64,000 nt of DNA from an uncultured Clostridia bacterium (lineage in GTDB: Bacteria; Bacillota; Clostridia; TANB77; CAG-508): contig CANQES010000001.1 of NCBI GenBank assembly GCA_947595555.1, positions 208 through 64,207 on the forward strand. The letters are read 5' to 3'. The notes under the pieces are model-generated. The model saw only the letters and a program-made list of their open reading frames with translations. It did not search any database and was not told the DNA's origin. Of this stretch, positions 2,459 to 52,725 are shown one piece after another (position 1 is the first letter of the stretch; every line of letters starts with the position of its first letter). The translations under genes were made by a program, and so were the position numbers.

Positions 2459-4696
2459 CTAAATTCTTTCATGAATAGTTCGATTTATTACATCTAATTG
2501 TTGCTCTCTAGTTAATTTTGTAAAGTTTACAGCATACCCAGAAACACGAATTGTCAATTGAGGATATTTTTCAGGATGCTCCATAGCATCTTCTAGTAAA
2601 CTTCTATCAAATACATTTACATTAATATGATGTCCCGTTTGAGTAAAAAATCCGTCTAACATATTAACTAAATTCGTAATTCTTTCTTCTTCTGATTTTC
2701 CTAAAGTATTTGGCGTGATAGAGAATGTGTATGAAATTCCATCTTCAGCAGAATCAAATGGTAATTTTGCAATAGTGTTCATAACAGCTAATGCTCCATT
2801 AGCATCTCTACCGTGTAGAGGATTCGCACCAGGTCCAAAAGGTTCACCAGCATGCCTTCCATCAGGAGTACTTCCAGTTGCCTTACCGTAAACAACATTA
2901 GAAGTTATTGTTAAAATAGATAAAGTGTGTTTTGAATTCCTATAAGTTTGATGAGTTCTTAATTTGTTCATAAATGTTTTTACAATTGAAACTGCTATTT
3001 GATCTACTCTATCATCATCATTTCCGTATTTTGGAAAATCTCCTTCAATTTTATAATCTACTGCTAGTCCAGTTTCATTACGTATAACTTTTACTTTTGC
3101 ATATTTAATAGCAGATAAAGAGTCAGCAACAACTGATAGACCAGCAATTCCACAAGCCATAGTACGAATAACCTCACGGTCATGTAAAGCCATTTCAATT
3201 GCTTCATAAGAATATTTATCATGCATAAAATGAATAGCATTTAATGCTTTAATATAAATTTTTGCAACATAATCCATCATTTGATTAAATTTTTCCATAA
3301 CTTCTTCATAATCAAGATATTCAGAAGTAATTGGCTCATATTTTGGAGTAACTTGTTTACCAGATATTTCATCTTTACCACCATTAATAGCATATAATAA
3401 TGCTTTTGCTAAATTTGCTCTAGCTCCGAAAAATTGCATCTGTTTTCCAATTTTCATAGGAGAAACGCAACAAGCAATACCATAATCATCTCCTAGTGTA
3501 ATTCTCATTAAATCATCATTTTCATATTGGATAGAAGATGTTTTTATAGATAACTTAGTTGTAAATCTTTTAAATCCTTCTGGTAATCTAGTAGACCACA
3601 AAACTGTTAGGTTTGGCTCTGGTGCTGGACCTAAATTTTGCAATGTATGCAAAATACGGAAAGAATTTTTTGTAACTAAAGTTCTTCCGTCAATTCCCAT
3701 ACCACCAATGCTTTCTGTCACCCAAACAGGGTCTCCACTAAATAACTCATTATATTCGGGAGTTCTTAAGAAACGAACTAATCTTAATTTCATAACAAAA
3801 TGATCCATAATCTCTTGAGCTTCATTTTCAGTTATTATACCATTTTTTAAATCTCTCTCAAAATAAATATCTAAAAATGTAGTATTTCTTCCGAGACTCA
3901 TAGCAGCACCATTTTGTTCCTTAATAGCACCTAAGTACCCAAAATATAGCCATTGAACAGCTTCTTTACTATTAGCAGCAGGCATAGAAATATCAAATCC
4001 ATATTTTGAAGCCATTACCTTTAATTCATTTAGAGCATCTATTTGTTCGCTAATTTCCTCTCTTTCACGAATAACTGATTCAGTAAACTCATCTACATTT
4101 AAAACATCTAGCTCTTTTTTCTTTTCTTCGATTAAATAATCCACTCCATATAAAGCAACTCTTCTATAATCTCCAATAATTCTTCCTCGCCCATAACCAT
4201 CAGGAAGACCAGTTATCAGGTGTGAAGACCTAGCAGCACGGATGTCTGGCGTGTAAACACTAAATACCCCATCATTATGAGTTTTTCTATATTTATGGAA
4301 AATGTCATCAATATCTGGTTCCACATGTCTTCCATATGCTTCACATGATTTTTCCACAATTCTAATTCCTCCAAATGGCATGATAGCTCTTTTAAGAGGA
4401 GCATCAGTTTGTAATCCGACAATATCTTCCAATTCTTTATCAATATAACCAGCTTCATGGCTAGATATAGTTGAAACAGTTTTTGTATCAATGTCTAGTA
4501 CATTTCCCTGGCTTTCCTTTTCTTTTTGGTATAAATCTAATACTTTGTCCCATAATTTTTTTGTTTTTTCAGAAGCTCCAACTAAAAAACTATCGTCTCC
4601 TTCATATGGTGTGTAATTTTTTTGAATGAAATCCCTTACATTAATTTCTTCTTGCCAGTCACCAATGACAAATCCATTCCATTGTTCAAATTTCAT
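2459..4696 (-). CDS. pflB: Pyruvate formate-lyase (glycyl radical enzyme)
   Basis: 745 aa with C-terminal glycyl-radical motif RVSGYAVNF and an active-site-like CC pair (GIACCVSPM). Confidence 0.95.
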
Positions 4697-5824: not shown

Positions 5825-6760
5825 TTACATACCTAATAACTTTAAAGCTACATTCTCCATTTTATATTTTCCATCAACTAAAACAAACTCCACTAATGTA
5901 TTCTCTAAGGTTTCTTCATTTTGTCTTAAATCTGTAGTAAAATATAATTTTATTTGTGGTATGTCTACTGCATTTTTCACAATTTCTTTAAAAGTTTCTG
6001 CCATGTTTTTTTCGTCTTCACAAATTAATATTAATTGTGGCATACTGCTAAATCCTGAATCACCTTGTACAAAATTTTCATAAAAATCTTTATACAATCT
6101 CATCTTATCTACTATTTTCTTTTGCCAATCTGCTTCTCTTCTAACTACTTCAAAAACAAATTGAATTGATTTTCCATTTTTAGTTAGTTTTACAGCTCCT
6201 CCAGTTGCCTTAAATAGTTTTCCAGTAACTTTTGCTGTTATTGCTGGCTTTACTATATAGCTGTCAAAAGCTTTTACTTTTCTTAGATACGCAATTAGCG
6301 TTTGATTTCCTGCTAGTCTTTTCTTAATCATCGCAACTGTTTTGGTATTATCTGATGGTTGCCATTTACACTCAATTTCTTTCGAATTTAATAAATATTT
6401 TCCCATTTTTTCTAGACAGTAAATTCTATAAATTCCTTTTCCTTCATCAGAAGTAAAGTAATATCTTGTTAAAATTTTTGATTTAACAAGTTGATCCAAT
6501 TTATTGTTTAATTTATCTTGAGATTTTGGGTCAATTCCTTTAATGTCTAACATCTGATATAATTGTCTTGAAGTTATAAATTCAAATTCATTTACCAATT
6601 CCAAAATAGCAAAATGAATGTCATTGATATGACCTATATTTATCTTATGTACAATTTGATTCATGGAAACATATCCATCTTTTCCATCAAATGTTTTTAT
6701 CTCACCTTCTCTAATAGCAAAAGGTGATACTTGTGCTTTAATTTGGTTATCTTCAACCAC
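5825..6760 (-). CDS. Hypothetical protein with a wHTH-like segment, possibly replication-relaxation-like
   Basis: 311-aa ORF. The segment ILELVNEFEFITSRQLYQML resembles a winged helix. No catalytic motif recognised. Confidence 0.3.
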   Translation of the reverse strand: MVEDNQIKAQVSPFAIREGEIKTFDGKDGYVSMNQIVHKINIGHINDIHFAILELVNEFEFITSRQLYQMLDIKGIDPKSQDKLNNKLDQLVKSKILTRYYFTSDEGKGIYRIYCLEKMGKYLLNSKEIECKWQPSDNTKTVAMIKKRLAGNQTLIAYLRKVKAFDSYIVKPAITAKVTGKLFKATGGAVKLTKNGKSIQFVFEVVRREADWQKKIVDKMRLYKDFYENFVQGDSGFSSMPQLILICEDEKNMAETFKEIVKNAVDIPQIKLYFTTDLRQNEETLENTLVEFVLVDGKYKMENVALKLLGM

Positions 6761-13632: not shown

Positions 13633-14301
13633 TTATTTGTAATTTTGATTAATCATATAACCTTCTTTTCCATTTACTCTAATGCGTACTTTATCCCAAG
13701 TATAACCGTCTGCTTTTGCAACTCCTGCCTCTAATACATATAAAGTAGTATTAGGTATATACAAAACTGCTGTACTTCCTTTGGTAGTTGGTTTATTTCT
13801 TAAATTTGTATTTCTTGCTAATGTTTTTAATACTGGTGTACTAGTAGCTGGTTTACTAGGCTCTTTTACTTGATAATTGCTACTATTATATGTTCCTACT
13901 TTATTTGGTATCCCCATGTAATCTGCTGGATTACTATTATCTGCATATTTATTGCTTGTATTTCTTATTTCAAAATGTAAATGCTTTCCTGTACTATTTC
14001 CTGTACTTCCCATAATTCCTATTTTAGATACTCTGCTTACTTTTTGATTTACAGAAACGTTTATTTTTGACAAATGACAATACCAATGATATTTCCCATC
14101 AGCATCATTTTTTACTACTATAAAGTTACCATAGCTTTTATCATAGCCTGTCCTTGTTACTACTCCATCACAAGTTGCATATATTGTGTCATTGTCACAT
14201 ACAAGATCTATTCCTGTATGCCAACCACAAGCCCAACTCCCTTTTCTTTTGTATTCACATGTTACTTTAAATTCTCCTGTTAATGGTATATTTGTAGCCA
14301 T
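13633..14301 (-). CDS. Phage endolysin, M23 (LytM-type) peptidase with a C-terminal SH3-like targeting domain
   Basis: HxxxD ... GSTGNSTGKHLHFEI M23 motifs; adjacent to the holin. Confidence 0.75.
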   Translation of the reverse strand: MATNIPLTGEFKVTCEYKRKGSWACGWHTGIDLVCDNDTIYATCDGVVTRTGYDKSYGNFIVVKNDADGKYHWYCHLSKINVSVNQKVSRVSKIGIMGSTGNSTGKHLHFEIRNTSNKYADNSNPADYMGIPNKVGTYNSSNYQVKEPSKPATSTPVLKTLARNTNLRNKPTTKGSTAVLYIPNTTLYVLEAGVAKADGYTWDKVRIRVNGKEGYMINQNYK

Positions 14302-32611: not shown

Positions 32612-32977
32612 TTACCATCTCTCCTTTGTTAATGGAACTTTTCTTTTTCTCCATCTCCATCTATGTCTATCTTCAATTATTTCATGTGCTTCAAAACTTA
32701 AACTTATACAATTGTTTATATCTAAAGCTAAATCTGGTCTTTCTTTAATTGGTATAATATGATGAACTGTATCTGCATTTATTATTTTTATTACTTTTGG
32801 AAAATGTTTTCCATCATTCCATTTACCTAAAAAAAATTGACACTTTCCTTTATCTCTTTTTAATACCTTTTCTCTTAATTCGTCCCAGTCTGTAGAATTA
32901 TAAAATTTATTGGTATTCCCTTTGGCAATTTCTATTTCCCAATTATAATATTTCCTTCTTGCTCTTCTTTGCTTCAC
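32612..32977 (-). CDS. HNH endonuclease (packaging-associated)
   Basis: HNH motif CQFFLGK...DTVHHIIPIKERPDL...N; located near the terminase genes. Confidence 0.75.
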   Translation of the reverse strand: MKQRRARRKYYNWEIEIAKGNTNKFYNSTDWDELREKVLKRDKGKCQFFLGKWNDGKHFPKVIKIINADTVHHIIPIKERPDLALDINNCISLSFEAHEIIEDRHRWRWRKRKVPLTKERW

Positions 32978-34166: not shown

Positions 34167-34206
34167 TTGCTTTTATCTCCTTTAATTGTTTTATTTTTGC
34201 TTCACT

Positions 34207-34282
34207 TGGTCTAGGTCGAAGGAGTCGAACCTTCAATCTCAGGTATCCAAGACCCGCATCTTACCATCAAGACTTGACCTAG
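34207..34282 (-). tRNA. tRNA-Pro (anticodon UGG), phage-encoded, CCA-encoded
   Basis: A manual cloverleaf fits: acceptor CTAGGTC/GACCTAG with C1-G72, A73 and CCA; D-loop with GG; anticodon loop CTTGGAT; T-arm GAAGG-TTCGACT-CCTTC. Position 8 is A rather than U. Confidence 0.75.
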
Positions 34283-34357
34283 ATATTAGAACTCACTAGG
34301 AAAGTTCCTTTAACAAAAGATTAGAGAGATATTAATTAATTTATAGGAGTGTGTTGT

Positions 34358-34459
34358 ATGGATTTATATATTAACATACCTAGCATAGTTAATGGCATAA
34401 TAAAAGAGCCTATCTATTCGGTAAGCTCTTTTATTAAAACTGTATATGTGAAAGTTTAA
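34358..34459 (+). CDS. Possible small ORF (33 aa, MDLYINIPSIVNGIIKEPIYSVSSFIKTVYVKV)
   Basis: AGGAG 9 nt upstream of the ATG; falls below the ORF-track threshold. Confidence 0.2.
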   Translation: MDLYINIPSIVNGIIKEPIYSVSSFIKTVYVKV

Positions 34460-34482
34460 TGTCTTAATTTGTCCTTTTAGGT

Positions 34483-34510
34483 TGATTATTTTTCTAACTC
34501 ATAGTATAAT
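34483..34510 (+). promoter_or_regulatory. Sigma-A-type promoter TTGATT-16-TATAAT for the small toxin-like ORF
   Basis: TTGATT at 34483-34488 and TATAAT at 34505-34510. Confidence 0.5.
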
Positions 34511-34563
34511 AGCTTTGTCTTCTGTTCTATCTTCTTTTTTAAATCTTCGGAAAGGAGGTAGCA

Positions 34564-34632
34564 ATGAAAAACCTAATTCGTATCGTCGCATTAGTTGTTA
34601 TATACTTAATTCTTAAGTTGTTCAATGATTAA
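34564..34632 (+). CDS. 22-aa hydrophobic peptide (MKNLIRIVALVVIYLILKLFND), a type I toxin-like candidate
   Basis: Consensus RBS AAAGGAGG 5 nt upstream of the ATG; its own promoter and terminator; a single predicted TM helix with a charged end. Confidence 0.5.
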   Translation: MKNLIRIVALVVIYLILKLFND

Positions 34633-34633
34633 T

Positions 34634-34671
34634 GCAAAAGACTAGAGCTACCACTCTAGTCTTTTTTTGTC
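34634..34671. terminator. Bidirectional rho-independent terminator (AAAGACTAGAG / CTCTAGTCTTT)
   Basis: Perfect 11-bp inverted repeat followed by T7 on the plus strand and preceded by an A-run. Confidence 0.6.
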
Positions 34672-34784
34672 TTCTTCCAATTTCGTATCGTCCTTCTTGC
34701 GAAAAGAGGTTAAATGAATGAATAAATAATAAATAAAGAATTGAGAATTTATTATTATCATATTTAACCTTGACACTTATGTGT
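34634..34784 (-). ncRNA. Putative antisense (antitoxin-like) RNA, convergent to the small peptide gene
   Basis: A minus-strand promoter (TTGATT-17-TATAAT) predicts a roughly 150-nt transcript ending at the shared terminator. It contains GACGATACGAA, complementary to TTCGTATCGTC in the peptide mRNA. Confidence 0.3.
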
Positions 34785-34798
34785 CTATATTATTATAC
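34769..34798 (+). promoter_or_regulatory. Plus-strand promoter TTGACA-18-TATACT, face-to-face with and overlapping the minus-strand promoter
   Basis: TTGACA at 34769-34774 and TATACT at 34793-34798. It would transcribe the ORF-less 34.8-35.1 kb stretch antisense to the ArpU-like gene. Confidence 0.3.
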
Positions 34799-34819
34799 TA
34801 GAGTTGTTATTAAAAATCA
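34791..34819 (-). promoter_or_regulatory. Minus-strand sigma-A-type promoter (TTGATT-17-TATAAT) for the putative antisense RNA
   Basis: Reverse complement of 34814-34819 is TTGATT; reverse complement of 34791-34796 is TATAAT; the spacer is 17 nt. Confidence 0.4.
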
Positions 34820-35118
34820 ATACTTCTGGGTATATTTTATTAATTTTTTTATTGGGTTTTTTATAATTTTATGCTAATTCTATTACAATTATACCACTTT
34901 TATGTTGATTTTGCAAATTTTCATTAAAAAACTAGCTATAAAATAAATCTATAACTAGTCTTCATATTAAATAAAATTCGGAGCCTTTTATTTAATCCTA
35001 TTATTCTCACTTGGACTTTGGACTGGTTTCTCTCCAGTTGCGATAATTTTACTATTCTTATTATACTATATATAAATAGTAATTAATATAGAATTTTTAC
35101 CGAATTTATACCGAATTT

Positions 35119-35622
35119 TTATAGTTTGGCTATTTTTTCAATTGCCTCATCTATTATTGCTTTTATAGTCTCTCCTGTCCTTGTTTGATGATAAATTTCC
35201 CAATAAACCCTATTTCCTATATCCTCATATGTATTGCCTTCTATATAATAAGCCTCTAACATTTTTCTTTCTTTGAATTTTAATCCTTCCAGTCTATCGT
35301 CAATCGTTTCAACTTTATCTCTTAAATCTTTTATTATTTTCTCTAAAATTTCAATTTCTTTATTCAATTCATTTTTCTTTATATCATTTTTTTCTATTTT
35401 TTTGAGCACCTTATTGCTAATTTTATTTTTGCTATGTATATCTTGATTTATTCCATATGCTGATGTTAACATGGTGTCTAGCTCATCATCAGATTTTAAT
35501 TTTATCCTTGCTAACTTTAATTCTTTTAGTTTAATATTTAATTTTGCCTTGTTCTCTTTGTATTCTTTTAATAATTTAATTAGTTCTTCCTTCGTCATAA
35601 GTTTCCTCCTATGCCTTAACAT
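35119..35622 (-). CDS. Putative phage late transcriptional regulator (ArpU/RinA-like, sigma region 4-like C-terminus)
   Basis: C-terminal MLEAYYIEGNTYEDIGNRVYW...TRTGETIKAIIDEAIEKIAK looks like an HTH. Confidence 0.4.
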   Translation of the reverse strand: MLRHRRKLMTKEELIKLLKEYKENKAKLNIKLKELKLARIKLKSDDELDTMLTSAYGINQDIHSKNKISNKVLKKIEKNDIKKNELNKEIEILEKIIKDLRDKVETIDDRLEGLKFKERKMLEAYYIEGNTYEDIGNRVYWEIYHQTRTGETIKAIIDEAIEKIAKL

Positions 35623-45213: not shown

Positions 45214-46131
45214 TTACAACCTCTTTACATTTATTCTTGTTTCATCTCTTGCCGGAACTAAATATTCTTTTTTGTGTATAATCTTTTTTTCAAAAATATA
45301 TTTATTGCTTAATACTTTTTGTCTATTGCCAATAGCCTTTTTAATTTGATTGTTTACTTCTGTATATTCTTGATAATATTTTGATAATTCTTGCTTTTTG
45401 TCTACTAATTCATCAAGTTCCCCTGAAACATCTACATCTGTTTCTACTCTTTTTATATTAGCAGTACATACATGAGCTAAATCGCAATATTCACATACAC
45501 TTATATCTTCACAACTTTCTGGTAACCTTTCTTCTTCTAAACATTTATATATTCTTTCTGCTTTTTGTAGTAGTTGTTCTGCAAAGTCATAATCAAATTT
45601 TACCTCTATTAATTTTATTTCACCCGTTAATTTATTACACAAAGCAAAATATCCTTTCTCTTTACCAAATTGGAACATATAAATATATAATTGAGCAGGA
45701 TATGCTCTGACATAATATTTTTTACTATTTAAAAAGTCTTCTACTGAATTTAATTTTTCCCATTCTTGTGGACTCAATCCTTTTACTTCTACAGGATAAA
45801 ATTGTCCATCTTCTAGTTTTATTCTTAAATCTTCCCTTCCAGTCACAAGAGGTTTTTCAACCTTCCATGCTCTTACTGTTGGAGTTATAACTTCAAATCC
45901 TGAATCTTTTAAAGTTTGTATTACATATTCTTCTATCTTATTTCCTAAATCAAAAATACATTGAGTTGTCTCATTATAAAGTTTTTTATCCTCCCAATTT
46001 TTTATAGATAAATATAAATATCTTTCACAAGGATGTCCTATATTTGAAGCTCTTAAATTATTGCAAGGATATAATTTAATTTTACTTTGTTTGTTCTCCT
46101 TTATTTTGTTGTTCATTTCCTGTATTTCCAT
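45214..46131 (-). CDS. PD-(D/E)XK-family recombination exonuclease (Cas4/YqaJ-like) with a C-terminal Cys cluster
   Basis: The D...E.K core (DLRIKLEDGQFYPVEVK) and C-terminal CEDISVCEYCDLAHVC. Confidence 0.55.
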   Translation of the reverse strand: MEIQEMNNKIKENKQSKIKLYPCNNLRASNIGHPCERYLYLSIKNWEDKKLYNETTQCIFDLGNKIEEYVIQTLKDSGFEVITPTVRAWKVEKPLVTGREDLRIKLEDGQFYPVEVKGLSPQEWEKLNSVEDFLNSKKYYVRAYPAQLYIYMFQFGKEKGYFALCNKLTGEIKLIEVKFDYDFAEQLLQKAERIYKCLEEERLPESCEDISVCEYCDLAHVCTANIKRVETDVDVSGELDELVDKKQELSKYYQEYTEVNNQIKKAIGNRQKVLSNKYIFEKKIIHKKEYLVPARDETRINVKRL

Positions 46132-51309: not shown

Positions 51310-52725
51310 GTGAAAGATAATATAAATAATAATATGAATAATTTTAATAAAAAAGCTGAAGAAGTTGCACTCTACATCCGTGTCTCAACAGAGGAACAAG
51401 CCTTAAATGGAGATAGTCTAAGAACACAAAGAGAAGAATTAACTAAATATGCTCTTGCCAATGGTTTTCATATTTATAATATTTACGAAGACGATGGCTT
51501 TTCTGCTACTAATCTTAAAAGACCTGCATTGCAAAGAATGTTAAAAGACGTAGAACAAAATAAGATAAATAGAATACTTATAACAAAACTTGATCGTCTA
51601 TCTCGTGGAGTTAGGAACTATTATAAAGTTTTAGATGTTTTAGATGAACATGATGTATTTTGGCAAACTATATTTGAAAAATACGACAGTTCAACAGCCA
51701 ATGGTAGACTACATATTAATATTATGCTTTCTGTTGCAGAAAATGAATCCGCTCAAACCTCTGAAAGAATTAGGAGTGTCTTTAAAACAAAAATACAAAG
51801 TAAAGAATTGATAAGTGGCAAAATTCCTATTGGCCTTAAAAAAGATGATAAAAGAATGATAATAGATGAAGACAAAAAACAAGTTATTTTAGATGCTTTT
51901 CAGTTTTATAAAGAAACAATTAGTGCATATCAAACTTTTCAAAAATTAGACCTAAAATACCCAGAATTACAATTAAATTACATGAGAACTTATCGAATTT
52001 TAACAAACAAACTATATGTAGGAATTAAAGAAACTCGATATGGAGATATAGAAAACTTTTGTCCTGCAATAATAGACATTAATACATTTGAAAATACTCA
52101 AAAAATGTTGAAGAAAAATGCCAGAAAACAAAGTCATAATAATTCTGGTGGATATATTTTTCAAGGCATGTTAAAATGTGCTGAATGCGGATATACTTTG
52201 GGTGGCAAATTTTATGCTAAGAATTTAGAAAGTTCTAAATATTACTATATCTGCAAACGTCATCATTTATCTTTGAAATGCAGTTGTAATACGAATTTTA
52301 ATGAACAAAAAATTGAGCAGAAACTTTTAAAACAATTTATTCCTCAACTTGAAAAGTATATTTCTAATTATGAATACAAACAAAATAACGTTAAAAAACT
52401 TAATTTTTCAAAGGAAATTAATTCTGTTGAATCTAAATTAATTAAATTAAAAGATTTATATATAAGAGATTTAATTAGAATAGATGATTATGAAAATGAT
52501 TATAAAAAATATGTTTCTCAGTTGGAAAATCTATACAAAGAACAAGAAAGCATTGAGACAGACAAGCCAAAAAACAACATAGACATATTAAAATCATTCT
52601 TAAACCAAGATATTTTAACTATATATAATAATTCTTCTAGGTTAGAAAAAAGACGATTATGGTTATCTGTAATTGATTATATTGTAATAGATAAGGATTA
52701 TAACATGCAAATATTTTTTATTTAA
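51310..52725 (+). CDS. Large serine recombinase (phage integrase)
   Basis: Resolvase N-domain VALYIRVSTEEQ...; recombinase domain; zinc ribbon CAECGYTLGGKFYAKNLESSKYYYICKRHH; GTG start after AAGGAGG. Confidence 0.9.
   Translation: MKDNINNNMNNFNKKAEEVALYIRVSTEEQALNGDSLRTQREELTKYALANGFHIYNIYEDDGFSATNLKRPALQRMLKDVEQNKINRILITKLDRLSRGVRNYYKVLDVLDEHDVFWQTIFEKYDSSTANGRLHINIMLSVAENESAQTSERIRSVFKTKIQSKELISGKIPIGLKKDDKRMIIDEDKKQVILDAFQFYKETISAYQTFQKLDLKYPELQLNYMRTYRILTNKLYVGIKETRYGDIENFCPAIIDINTFENTQKMLKKNARKQSHNNSGGYIFQGMLKCAECGYTLGGKFYAKNLESSKYYYICKRHHLSLKCSCNTNFNEQKIEQKLLKQFIPQLEKYISNYEYKQNNVKKLNFSKEINSVESKLIKLKDLYIRDLIRIDDYENDYKKYVSQLENLYKEQESIETDKPKNNIDILKSFLNQDILTIYNNSSRLEKRRLWLSVIDYIVIDKDYNMQIFFI

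Follow-up and report, generated by a model that had tools for sequence, protein, structure and literature searches.

A candidate par-like type I toxin-antitoxin cassette at the early/late junction of a siphovirus-type prophage from an uncultured Clostridia bacterium

An intergenic island of a siphovirus-type prophage very probably carries a self-contained type I toxin-antitoxin cassette of ~450-560 bp, organized like the par locus of plasmid pAD1 and inserted as an accessory element at the early/late junction. This reading rests on sequence comparison, which supports the original prediction of a type I module at this place. The cassette was studied within the window, i.e. the whole stretch of 64,000 nucleotides that was analysed, and the host of the prophage is an uncultured gut Clostridia bacterium. 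The island is bordered on the left by a tRNA-Pro(tgg) gene on the minus strand (34207-34282) and on the right by the stop codon of a Sigma70_r4-like regulator gene at 35119. Homology of the cassette in blastn comparisons starts near 34365-34397. Elsewhere, the endolysin gene occupies positions 13633-14301, 20 kb from the cassette, and the host assignment comes from a flanking host gene that shares 88% amino-acid identity with an uncultured Clostridia MAG (L067).

The cassette belongs to a family. Scanning viral, genome and metagenome collections with sequence patterns provided 55 homologous modules that were parsed, 51 of them unique, and 16 further metagenome matches that were left unparsed. 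Carriers are Bajarodcaudo virus 4 with two copies, which were found by tblastn and blastn, phage contigs of IMG/VR and MAGs of uncultured gut Clostridia; all of them are uncultured organisms or metagenomic phages. The search for homologs gave more than 50 relatives but no match to a known family. The common layout comprises a promoter, a sequestered Shine-Dalgarno (SD) sequence, a gene for a peptide of 20-26 residues, a terminator and a convergent promoter for a non-coding RNA of ~100-170 nt. Identities between modules range from ~68% to 80%, and the block around the antitoxin promoter is 84% identical between the window and Bajarodcaudo virus 4. Related phages that carry the peptide gene retain both the direct repeat and the promoter pair. 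A hit in Bullifex porci (L054) was discarded as a false positive lying inside a gene.

Some searches returned nothing. The exact back-translated pattern of the 12 N-terminal residues, which was too strict, had no match in viral contigs. The peptides of two other subfamilies had no tblastn match in phages, in a search whose 25-residue query also missed the related module L002 (~72% identical, PQ006095), perhaps owing to the low-complexity filter, and the window peptide had none in plasmids; neither of these negative outcomes is informative. Ten representative peptides were all absent (0/10) from a collection of 15 billion proteins. In the GenBank phage with two copies neither toxin gene is annotated, an ORF on the antisense side being annotated instead, and the peptide motif was not found in the searchable literature.

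The toxin promoter P+ was located on the plus strand by a consensus scan (10 of 12 matches), with TTGATT at 34482-34487 and TATAAT at 34505-34510. Both hexamers had been recognized in the original prediction, but direct reading gives a spacer of 17 nt and not 16. In the subfamily alignment, referred to as A1, the TTG of the -35 element and most of the -10 element are invariant, and most of the 51 modules have a TTGnnn-17-TATAAT arrangement 24-50 nt ahead of the start codon. The predicted toxin mRNA, counted from a predicted transcription start, spans ~156 nt (34517..34672, plus strand). Direct reading confirms its consensus ribosome binding site, AAAGGAGG, at 34551-34558, where GAAAGGAGG is nearly invariant in A1, and the ORF list contains the expected 22-codon gene at 34564-34632 with its ATG at 34564, encoding MKNLIRIVALVVIYLILKLFND.

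Folding of this mRNA gives a free energy of -41.9 kcal/mol (z = -5.2), a stability reached by none of 200 shuffled sequences. A 5' stem-loop (34520..34568) sequesters the SD in both the MFE and the centroid structures through pairing of the upstream segment CUAUCUUCUUUUU with GAAAGGAGGUAG. The unpaired probability of the SD is 0.00 in the window and averages 0.15 over 46 modules, versus 0.29 with a shuffled UTR (p = 3e-8). A second hairpin, internal to the ORF, adjoins the terminator (34588..34634). On A1, 88.5% of the alignment cells are paired in this structure versus 38-55% when the partners are slid, and 12 pairs changed on both sides. The SD-hiding helix (helix 3) is 86% paired and shows U-G to C-G changes that are compatible solely with a plus-strand RNA, while the intra-ORF hairpin (helix 4) is 93.5% paired with six pairs changed on both sides.

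The shared terminator lies at 34636-34665 and was found by consensus scan as the hairpin AAAAGACTAGAG-CTACCA-CTCTAGTCTTTT, with a 12-bp stem, a 6-nt loop and a T-run after it. It is shared by the two predicted RNAs, with a tail of seven U on the plus strand and four U on the minus strand (UUUUGCAUUA). The hairpin described as a perfect bidirectional terminator is therefore present, but the word perfect was generous for a minus-strand tail of four U only. Its core ACTAGAG..CTCTAGT is unique in the window and is found in all 11 true family members recovered by a pattern in which this core was not a requirement. The loops vary over the family (5-7 nt); the YUNR motif is absent from the window loop CUACCA and present in 16 of 51 family loops. 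Because of the short minus-strand tail, the efficiency of termination on that strand is uncertain, and the antisense RNA may read through to a second hairpin (34433-34396). This flanking terminator-like hairpin, AAGAGCUUACC..GGCUCUU followed by UUAUUAUG on the minus strand (34396..34433), has a predicted free energy of -9.8 kcal/mol in the window. A hairpin of the form AAGAGnnUAUC...GAUAnnCUCUU with a U-tail is found in at least 15 of 49 modules and aligns in A1. It probably stops minus-strand read-through exiting the cassette.

The antitoxin promoter P- faces the toxin gene from the far side of the terminator. It scored 10 of 12 matches in the consensus scan, with TTGATT at 34820-34815 and TATAAT at 34797-34792 on the minus strand, 17 nt apart; the sequence and spacer are as initially described, and the position 34820-34792 is shifted by 1 nt from the 34791-34819 first given. 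The -10 element is invariant in A1. Nearly all modules whose flanking sequence is long enough have a TTGnnn-17-TATAAT promoter past the terminator, always at ~100-170 nt from it. The resulting antitoxin RNA is predicted to be ~155 nt long and non-coding (34630..34786, minus strand), both ends being inferred. It folds into three hairpins with a free energy of -43.3 kcal/mol (z = -5.8), leaving the segment complementary to the intra-ORF repeat in an open region. The 5'-terminal hairpin, GACAC-AUAA-GUGUC on the minus strand (34772..34785), keeps its pairing in relatives in spite of sequence changes (GCACA/UGUGC, GCGUAU/AUACGC, UGCACAU/AUGUGCA and GAUACA/UGUAUC). When six antisense RNAs were aligned with MAFFT, RNAalifold retrieved no more than a single internal hairpin plus the terminator; since the variable AU-rich middle misaligns, the covariation of the 5' hairpin was read by eye.

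Other readings of the same segment were discarded. A minus-strand coding gene had been considered for the 42-aa ORF at 34648-34776 and for the annotated XHH63592.1 in PQ006095, but the longest minus-strand ORFs of the modules bear no relation to one another, with lengths from 4 to 63 aa, and no minus-strand ORF is conserved across 49 modules. A plus-strand promoter TTGACA-18-TATACT (34770-34799) is a strong match in the window, but its -35 element is not kept in relatives and it was rejected as a family feature; in the antisense RNA this element makes up one arm of the covarying 5' hairpin. In searches with Rfam 15, only the tRNA reached its gathering score in the window. The matches up to E = 10 between 34000 and 35300 (Yfr10, ncr1015, csRNA, MicC) are terminator-like chance matches, and the modules of 15 related loci gave none.

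The specific recognition of the toxin mRNA would depend on direct repeats. The first one, DR1 (TTTGTCTTCT), lies at the 5' end of the toxin mRNA (34514..34523) and is repeated identically just past the terminator as DR1' (TTTGTCTTCT, 34666-34675), so that its antisense complement pairs with the mRNA 5' end in the duplex prediction. Similar 5'-end repeats are seen elsewhere, e.g. TTTTTGTTCCATTTT in L021 and TTTTTGTCCTTC in L007. The second one, DR2, is the 11-mer of the original prediction and was verified by direct reading at both sites: TTCGTATCGTC occurs in codons 5-8 of the toxin gene (34577-34587) and again as DR2' (34682-34692), where the antisense RNA bears GACGAUACGAA. DR2 is unpaired in the MFE structure and is a predicted single-stranded target; its unpaired probability is 0.91 in the window and averages 0.69 over 46 modules, versus 0.33 elsewhere in the ORF (p = 9e-14). 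The third element is an imperfect copy of the toxin initiation region (GAAAAGAGGTTAAATGAA, 34701..34718) whose complement provides an antisense anti-SD and anti-start sequence. Most of the 12 MKN-subfamily sequences keep GAAAGGAGGT..ATGAA there, with no conserved ORF behind it. This copy pairs with 34549-34568 in the colinear duplex prediction and also contributes an arm to a conserved antisense hairpin. The complementarity initially limited to codons 5-8 is thereby retained and extended to at least three segments, i.e. the 5' end, the SD/start region and codons 5-8. The order of DR2' and the SD-like copy is reversed relative to their targets, and the two cannot both belong to one colinear duplex.

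DR2 varies among modules while matching the ORF of its own module (e.g. CTACGCATT, TCTACAACGAATTATC and TTAACACTTATTGTC). Cognate partners share a longest repeat with a median length of 12 nt, always located ~12-38 nt past the terminator, versus 8 nt for non-cognate ones (95th percentile 11). Intermolecular covariation over 49 modules reaches 0.521, versus 0.178 in shuffles (0/500) and at most 0.18 with partners slid, although these pairing figures are inflated since the register was picked for each module by best match and the family members are phylogenetically related. For instance, 36 sequences have AU and 12 have CG at pair 16/45, and at pair 17/44 there are 35 with AU, 11 with GC and 3 with UA. 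The RNAduplex energies agree with cognate recognition, with a mean of -37.0 kcal/mol for cognate versus -25.7 kcal/mol for non-cognate pairs, but they include an AU-rich and SD-like background and count for less than the tests of repeat length and covariation. When partners are ranked, the cognate antitoxin comes first in only 12 of 48 cases, with a median rank of 2, partly because close relatives are included in the set.

The peptides are 20-26 residues long (n=55), with L10, Y14, I16, L17, K18 and F20 invariant, and end zero to two residues past F20 (with nothing, D, N, K, ND, DN, DD or DK). The codon-position entropy of 0.84, 0.25 and 1.34 for positions 1, 2 and 3 indicates that the peptide is protein-coding and under purifying selection. 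The peptides are hydrophobic with a predicted membrane helix, the family having a mean hydrophobicity of 0.53 and a hydrophobic moment of 0.28. The window peptide has almost no charged tail, and its hydrophobic stretch is short (14-16 residues); the analogy with the 19-residue IbsC makes an activity at the membrane plausible.

Several known systems share part of this organization. TxpA/RatA and BsrG/SR4 of Bacillus subtilis are likewise prophage-borne and consist of a small mRNA for a membrane toxin with a convergent antisense RNA. Their antitoxins pair through long perfect 3' overlaps and their toxins have 38-59 residues. Here the overlap is confined to the ~30-nt terminator, and repression would have to act via the repeated 5' segments. 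The architecture had been likened to these two systems as well as to Fst/RNA II; the par comparison fits, whereas the likeness to the Bacillus systems does not extend to the pairing layout. In Escherichia coli, ibs is opposed by Sib as a complete antisense RNA and OhsC is encoded in divergent orientation, and neither Ibs/Sib nor ShoB/OhsC is known to have direct repeats together with a shared terminator. They are Gram-negative chromosomal loci, and no sequence similarity to them was noticed. Their toxins are nevertheless comparable in being hydrophobic, sRNA-repressed, devoid of a positively charged tail and very short (19 aa for IbsC and 26 aa for ShoB; PMC8309996). The statement that the peptide is shorter than the described families is consequently true for Gram-positive toxins, which have 28-60 residues in B. 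subtilis and 34-59 in C. difficile (PMC6563280), but false overall.

Among Clostridia, type I modules are also carried by prophages of C. difficile, namely CD0977.1-RCd11, CD0904.1-RCd13, CD0956.2-RCd10 and their relatives, which likewise consist of convergent genes and were proposed to stabilise prophages (PMC6563280, PMC7699646). Their descriptions set them apart from the present family, and no resemblance between the two groups of toxins was noticed. The C. difficile toxins have 34-59 residues (30-56 in phages) and a lysine-rich C-terminal tail, whereas the peptides described here have 20-26 residues and end just past the helix with no such tail (PMC6563280). The C. difficile toxin and antitoxin genes overlap, whereas the overlap here is the terminator only and recognition would proceed via direct repeats.

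The best model is par of pAD1 from Enterococcus faecalis, which encodes the toxin Fst on RNA I and the antitoxin RNA II. Both loci combine convergent promoters, a shared terminator and complementary terminator hairpins with oppositely transcribed direct repeats that provide 5' complementarity over the SD and start codon (PMC7472228). They also share an SD hidden by an intramolecular 5' stem-loop, a small hydrophobic peptide with a single helix, and carriage by a mobile element (PMC7472228). The YUNR loop motif is missing from some par homologues (PMC7472228). The present family differs from par by its peptide of 20-26 residues, versus 33 in Fst, by its antitoxin of ~100-170 nt with three hairpins, versus ~40 nt for RNA II, by a third repeat copying the SD and start in the MKN subfamily, and by the conserved flanking terminator-like hairpin.

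By comparison with par, the following mechanism can be proposed. P+ would direct the synthesis of a ~156-nt mRNA for the 22-residue membrane peptide. With its SD hidden by the 5' stem-loop and most of its ORF folded in the hairpin beside the terminator, this mRNA would be compact and poorly translated. P- would produce the convergent non-coding RNA of ~155 nt ending at the common terminator; since the 5' segments of the toxin gene are repeated directly after the terminator, this RNA would hold complements of three parts of the mRNA. DR2, with 11 perfect base pairs predicted to be open in both RNAs, is the likely seed, and the two terminator hairpins would be complementary to each other. Pairing would block ribosome loading and probably mark the duplex for cleavage. 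Upon loss of the prophage or of the antisense supply, the peptide would be made and would damage the membrane, and cells keeping the prophage would be favoured. In this scheme we infer transcription from both promoters, the exact RNA ends, the toxicity of the peptide, how stable the two RNAs are relative to each other and that the cassette helps to maintain the prophage.

The genomic contexts bear on this role. The cassette adjoins the CI repressor gene in Bajarodcaudo virus 4, is found in tandem in L064 and again occupies the junction between the regulator and HNH/terminase genes in L033, L049, L058, L006, L039 and L070. These differing contexts suggest that it is autonomous. It is conceivable, if unlikely, that the cassette is not a simple addiction module but is built into phage gene regulation, as an insulator or sensor blocking early-to-late read-through in the lysogen. 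Such a role is suggested by the repeated location between the late-activator gene and the tRNA/HNH/terminase block, by terminator-like hairpins facing the direction of phage transcription and by a toxin promoter head-on against it. A membrane-active peptide might then be released when transcription is disturbed, e.g. during abortive infection or loss of lysogeny, and the covarying repeats would constitute a private recognition code for each co-resident copy.

It is quite improbable that the peptide is an accessory phage membrane protein regulated by antisense RNA and silenced in the lysogen, e.g. a lysis or holin modulator or a factor of superinfection exclusion or abortive infection, and not an addiction toxin. 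[quoted passage not shown] Nevertheless, the layout agrees in every point with a locus proven to perform post-segregational killing (PMC7472228), copies are also found elsewhere than at the late-gene junction, among them the two of a single 39.7-kb phage, and the peptide has no sequence tie to lysis genes, the endolysin gene being remote. In addition, when copies decay, it is the peptide gene that goes first. In L055, L060 and L065 either the 5' end of the toxin gene or its frame is lost, whereas the antitoxin promoter is still recognisable in two of the three (L055 and L065) and less clear in L060. These decayed copies fit a harmful toxin.

[quoted passage not shown] Every RNA-level feature of par-like loci is present, some Clostridiales are reported to carry Fst-like sequences (PMC6563280; PMC7472228), and so short a peptide loses detectable homology fast. 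Such a relationship is nonetheless very unlikely in view of the peptide itself. Proline is found in none of the 55 peptides, which excludes the PXXXG(C) motif essential for the toxicity of Fst and Lpt (PMC7472228), and the conserved Trp and the charged C-terminal tail of Fst are equally absent from all of them. No sequence relationship was detected either: Pfam and NCBIfam gave no relevant match, including none to an Fst family model, a family profile searched against the PDB found nothing at E up to 10, and hhalign against Fst of pAD1 returned a probability of 0.55%. Rfam likewise had no family match at E up to 10, any Fst antitoxin model that it may contain included. Over the protein collections as a whole, PADLOC and PHROGs as well as Pfam, NCBIfam and the PDB, matches were at chance level only, e.g. 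ilv leader peptides.

Finally, a fortuitous arrangement in AT-rich intergenic DNA, or a P- that is just a phage late or tRNA promoter next to an ordinary operon terminator, can be dismissed as extremely improbable: promoter-like sites in the window are at chance frequency (17 observed versus 17.0 expected from shuffles), a direct repeat of at least 11 nt arises somewhere in the 361 nt of 34470-34830 in 5.9% of dinucleotide shuffles and the island sits where a late promoter is expected, but the full arrangement recurs in 51 unique modules at non-syntenic places, with repeats covarying with the ORF, purifying selection on the peptide, a constant range of distances between P- and the terminator, and identities too low for assembly duplicates. 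Between the 5' end of the ORF and the stretch after the terminator specifically, a repeat of at least 11 nt is found in 0.2% of dinucleotide shuffles. As statistics confined to the window are weak, the significance of the cassette rests on the conservation of this whole arrangement among its relatives.

Overall, the peptides appear to form a new type I toxin family, unannotated so far, within a system whose logic is already known from par. It would add to uncultured gut Clostridia a type I toxin family below the cited lengths of Gram-positive toxins. The family is large and has diverged enough for antisense recognition to become visible as covariation, a rare situation among type I systems. 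In C. difficile, the stabilisation of prophages by type I systems that they carry is documented (PMC7699646), comparable modules of this species have been used as counter-selection markers (bioRxiv 10.1101/2020.03.04.976019), and type I systems have been reverse-engineered into portable RNA control devices (PMC12721322). Cassettes such as the one described here would mark accessory-gene sites in prophages and can bias prophage retention.

The toxin promoter of the cassette consists of TTGATT (34482-34487) and TATAAT (34505-34510) on the plus strand (direct reading and consensus scan). The original prediction had named the same hexamers, which stand, with a spacer of 16 nt, which has to be corrected to 17 nt. 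The SD AAAGGAGG (34551-34558, plus strand; direct reading of 34200-35200) precedes a plus-strand toxin ORF of 22 codons, MKNLIRIVALVVIYLILKLFND, with its ATG at 34564 and its end at 34632 (direct reading and ORF list). The terminator hairpin follows at 34636-34665, with a 12-bp stem, a 6-nt loop and a T-run (direct reading and consensus scan). The convergent antitoxin promoter P-, TTGATT-17-TATAAT, lies on the minus strand at 34820-34792 (consensus scan), as predicted except that it sits one base further right. The 11-nt direct repeat DR2, TTCGTATCGTC, was read directly at 34577-34587, in toxin codons 5-8, and at 34682-34692; like the SD, the ORF and the terminator hairpin, it is present as the original prediction had it. 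Two other repeats accompany it: a copy of the extreme mRNA 5' end, TTTGTCTTCT, at 34514-34523 and 34666-34675, and an imperfect SD/start-region repeat at 34701-34718 (subfamily consensus GAAAGGAGGT..ATGAA), behind which no conserved ORF was found in the MKN subfamily, the window's own group of modules. Promoter-like sites occur at chance density in the scan (17 observed, 17.0 expected). Direct repeats of 11 nt or more arise anywhere in 34470-34830 in 5.9% of dinucleotide shuffles, and between the ORF 5' end and the post-terminator stretch in 0.2%. On the window alone, the cassette exceeds chance only weakly and the case rests on related sequences.

Two different places in Bajarodcaudo virus 4 (PQ006095.1, rodent faeces) were matched by peptide tblastn and island blastn. 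Both are complete modules (loci L001 and L002), encoding MKNILRIIALVIIYLILKLFDN and MREYIKLLLKVIVLVLIYKILKMFD, each with a plus-strand TTGnnn-17-TATAAT, an SD, the terminator core GACTAGAG..CTCTAG and a convergent TTGATT-17-TATAAT. Pattern scans of IMG/VR identified 11 true members, and scans of species-representative genomes 45 loci; almost all of these genomes are MAGs of uncultured gut Clostridia or Clostridium sp., recovered from rabbit, mouse, human and sheep. Metagenome contigs gave 16 further matches. Automatic parsing yielded 55 modules (51 unique); their peptides are 20-26 aa long and share the invariant residues L10, Y14, I16, L17, K18 and F20. In blastn comparisons, cassette homology extends over ~34365 to ~34930 of the window, and the closest relative (L033) is 77% identical over 34475-34873. 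Decayed loci also occur, in L055 (~6133-6587), L060 (1-348) and L065 (6950-7405), having lost the toxin 5' end and start or the reading frame; all keep the terminator, and L055 and L065 clearly retain the repeat and antisense promoter as well, L060 less clearly. These searches support a cassette that is widespread in phages of uncultured gut Clostridia.

The stem core ACTAGAG..CTCTAGT of the terminator is conserved as a nucleotide sequence in all parsed modules, while ORF third positions vary freely. This conservation is not an artefact of the search pattern, since a scan without the terminator requirement returned only members that still carry the core. Many members have CTCTAGT ahead of the -10 of P- as well (CTCTAGTATAAT; window 34797-34806). 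The fixed core may conceivably have been kept through a protein-binding role; it is also possible that a stem common to two RNAs is unable to drift via G-U intermediates.

Over 15 aligned codons, codon-position entropy is 0.84, 0.25 and 1.34 for positions 1, 2 and 3, and third-position variation persists in invariant residues. The longest minus-strand ORFs range from 4 to 63 aa across modules and are unrelated, so that no conserved ORF is found there. Judged from these comparisons, the toxin peptide ORF is coding and the antisense strand is non-coding. As minus-strand ORFs are unrelated across modules, the 42-aa minus-strand ORF at 34648-34776 was rejected as spurious, and the CDS annotated antisense to the L001 module (1566-1691, PQ006095.1 17429-17554) looks spurious too. 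In the GenBank record of Bajarodcaudo virus 4, both cassettes have hypothetical proteins annotated over their antisense and promoter regions (over L002, at 1198-1311 and 1541-1654), and the toxin ORFs are left unannotated.

A convergent sigma-70-type promoter is found in nearly every module with enough flank, and the predicted RNA of ~100-170 nt ends at the shared terminator. The repeat is module-specific in sequence and always copies codons 2-9 of the same module (TTCGTATCGTC in the window, CTACGCATT in L001, TCTACAACGAATTATC in L004, TTAACACTTATTGTC in L007, CACAATTATAAGATT in L024). The longest word shared by the toxin 5' and post-terminator regions has a median of 12 nt in cognate pairs, against 8 nt (95th percentile 11) in non-cognate ones, and duplex energies average -37.0 and -25.7 kcal/mol, respectively. 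If the two repeat segments are taken to form a helix between the RNAs, 72.1% of cells are paired (51.3% in shuffles); in the core, pairing reaches 85-100% per position and involves several pair types. Covariation scores 0.521, compared with 0.178 in shuffles (0/500) and at most 0.18 with partners slid. Two points qualify these figures: the pairing register was picked per module by best match, and the sequences are related to one another. By this covariation the antisense relationship is conserved, and the proposal that the 11-mer is the segment pairing toxin and antisense RNAs is supported by cognate repeat length as well. The repeat and promoter pair, whose absence from related phages would have spoken against the module, are both present across related modules. 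A colinear duplex is also predicted in which the antisense RNA binds the 5' end of the mRNA together with the SD/start region, at -40.0 kcal/mol (shuffled antisense -26.0 ± 4.3 kcal/mol; 0.3% of shuffles as good). DR2 is out of order relative to this duplex, so the contacts cannot all share one helix.

For the predicted toxin mRNA (34517-34672), the fold has an energy of -41.9 kcal/mol (z = -5.2), with the SD inside a ~13-bp stem, codons 3-8 unpaired and the remaining ORF in a hairpin abutting the terminator. The SD has a mean unpaired probability of 0.15 over 46 modules, against 0.29 with shuffled UTR (p = 3e-8); for the target site the mean is 0.69, against 0.33 elsewhere in the ORF (p = 9e-14). 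In the subfamily alignment of 12 sequences, paired cells make up 88.5% of all structure cells, compared with 38-55% when slid, and 12 pairs changed on both sides; the SD helix includes U-G to C-G exchanges, compatible with the plus-strand RNA alone. The predicted antisense RNA (34786-34630; -43.3 kcal/mol, z = -5.8) comprises a 5'-terminal hairpin, a long AU-rich hairpin, an open anti-DR2 segment complementary to DR2 and the terminator. The 5' hairpin retains pairing with different sequences in relatives, as read from alignments, and the RNAalifold consensus contained a single internal hairpin besides the terminator.

Loci of the par type are defined in the literature (PMC7472228) by promoters that converge, a bidirectional terminator common to both transcripts, direct repeats sequestering the initiation region and a 5' stem-loop that covers the SD. 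All of these published features are found in the window cassette, at the sequence level and on predicted RNAs. In contrast, the Fst/Ldr protein features are missing: the peptide lacks the PXXXG(C) motif (it contains no proline), a conserved Trp and a charged tail, and Fst/Ldr family profiles did not match the toxin peptides. The YUNR loop motif occurs in 16 of 51 terminator loops and is absent in the window. Prophage toxins of C. difficile have 34-59 aa and lysine-rich tails (PMC6563280); toxins as small as the present peptides exist in E. coli, IbsC with 19 aa and ShoB with 26 aa (PMC8309996). No Rfam family covers the cassette RNAs, none of ten toxin peptides was present in a 15-billion-protein collection, and a literature search found no paper with the peptide motif. 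The comparison supports a new miniature family of toxin peptides in an organisation already known from par.

The prophage extends from ~13.6 to 52.7 kb and encodes an endolysin-like peptidase (13633-14301), an HNH endonuclease (32612-32977), a serine integrase (51310-52725), small and large terminase subunits, a major head protein and a tape-measure protein. A Cas4-domain/RecE-like exonuclease was also noted (45214-46131, minus strand; PHROG 1990, E = 1e-29). Window GC content is 25-31%, and a host gene in it shares 88% protein identity with one from an uncultured Clostridia MAG (L067). The island is flanked by a phage-borne tRNA-Pro(tgg) (34207-34282) and a 167-aa regulator with a weak Sigma70_r4 match (35119-35622), both on the minus strand. 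All phage genes near the island lie on that strand, and the mini-gene therefore opposes them. Placement between a late-regulator homologue and an HNH/terminase block recurs in L033, L049, L058, L006, L039 and L070, unlike one Bajarodcaudo virus 4 module, which adjoins a CI repressor gene. Tandem cassettes ~650 nt apart occur in L064 (3105-3191 and 3773-3839); the second has lost its stop codon (TAA to TCG), and its 46-aa peptide runs through the terminator. Genes for tRNAs often adjoin cassettes, as in the window (34207-34282, minus strand), L049 (6106-6177), L064 (2860-2931) and on either side of the L058 module (787-860 and 1530-1601), which may reflect phage tRNA islands or integration sites; the L028 neighbour is a small SRP RNA gene (3291-3388).

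Upstream of the toxin promoter, a minus-strand terminator-like hairpin (34433-34396) recurs in at least 15 of 49 modules. Beyond it, a block at 34340-34395 is common to L044, L037 and L049 (plus-strand consensus ~CTATATCAAnnACCTAGCATnTTGAT); read on the minus strand, it precedes the tRNA and late genes, and it may serve as the late promoter or be bound by the sigma-like regulator encoded nearby. On the other side, a minus-strand promoter match with an extended -10 (34888-34917; TTTGCA/TTGCAA, then TG-n-TATAAT) lies upstream of P-, is in part 94% identical to L044 over 31 nt, and could give a longer antisense transcript. A promoter-like block at 34925-35067 (minus strand; TTGCGA-18-TATACT on the plus strand, TAGTATAAT on the minus strand) is kept at the DNA level with L006, L039 and L070. 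Rfam gave nothing over this region beyond a weak csRNA-like match (E = 1). Together with an AT-rich minus-strand hairpin and T-run at ~34962-34925, the block could represent another small RNA or the regulator-gene terminator, between regulator and cassette.

Overall, the original reading as a type I toxin-antitoxin module is supported by the family, the covarying repeats, the sequestered SD, the coding peptide and the non-coding antisense strand. In mechanism, the cassette would very probably be a par-style module; we infer that it is expressed and that its peptide is toxic. By analogy with C. difficile (PMC7699646), its biological role would most likely be prophage retention.
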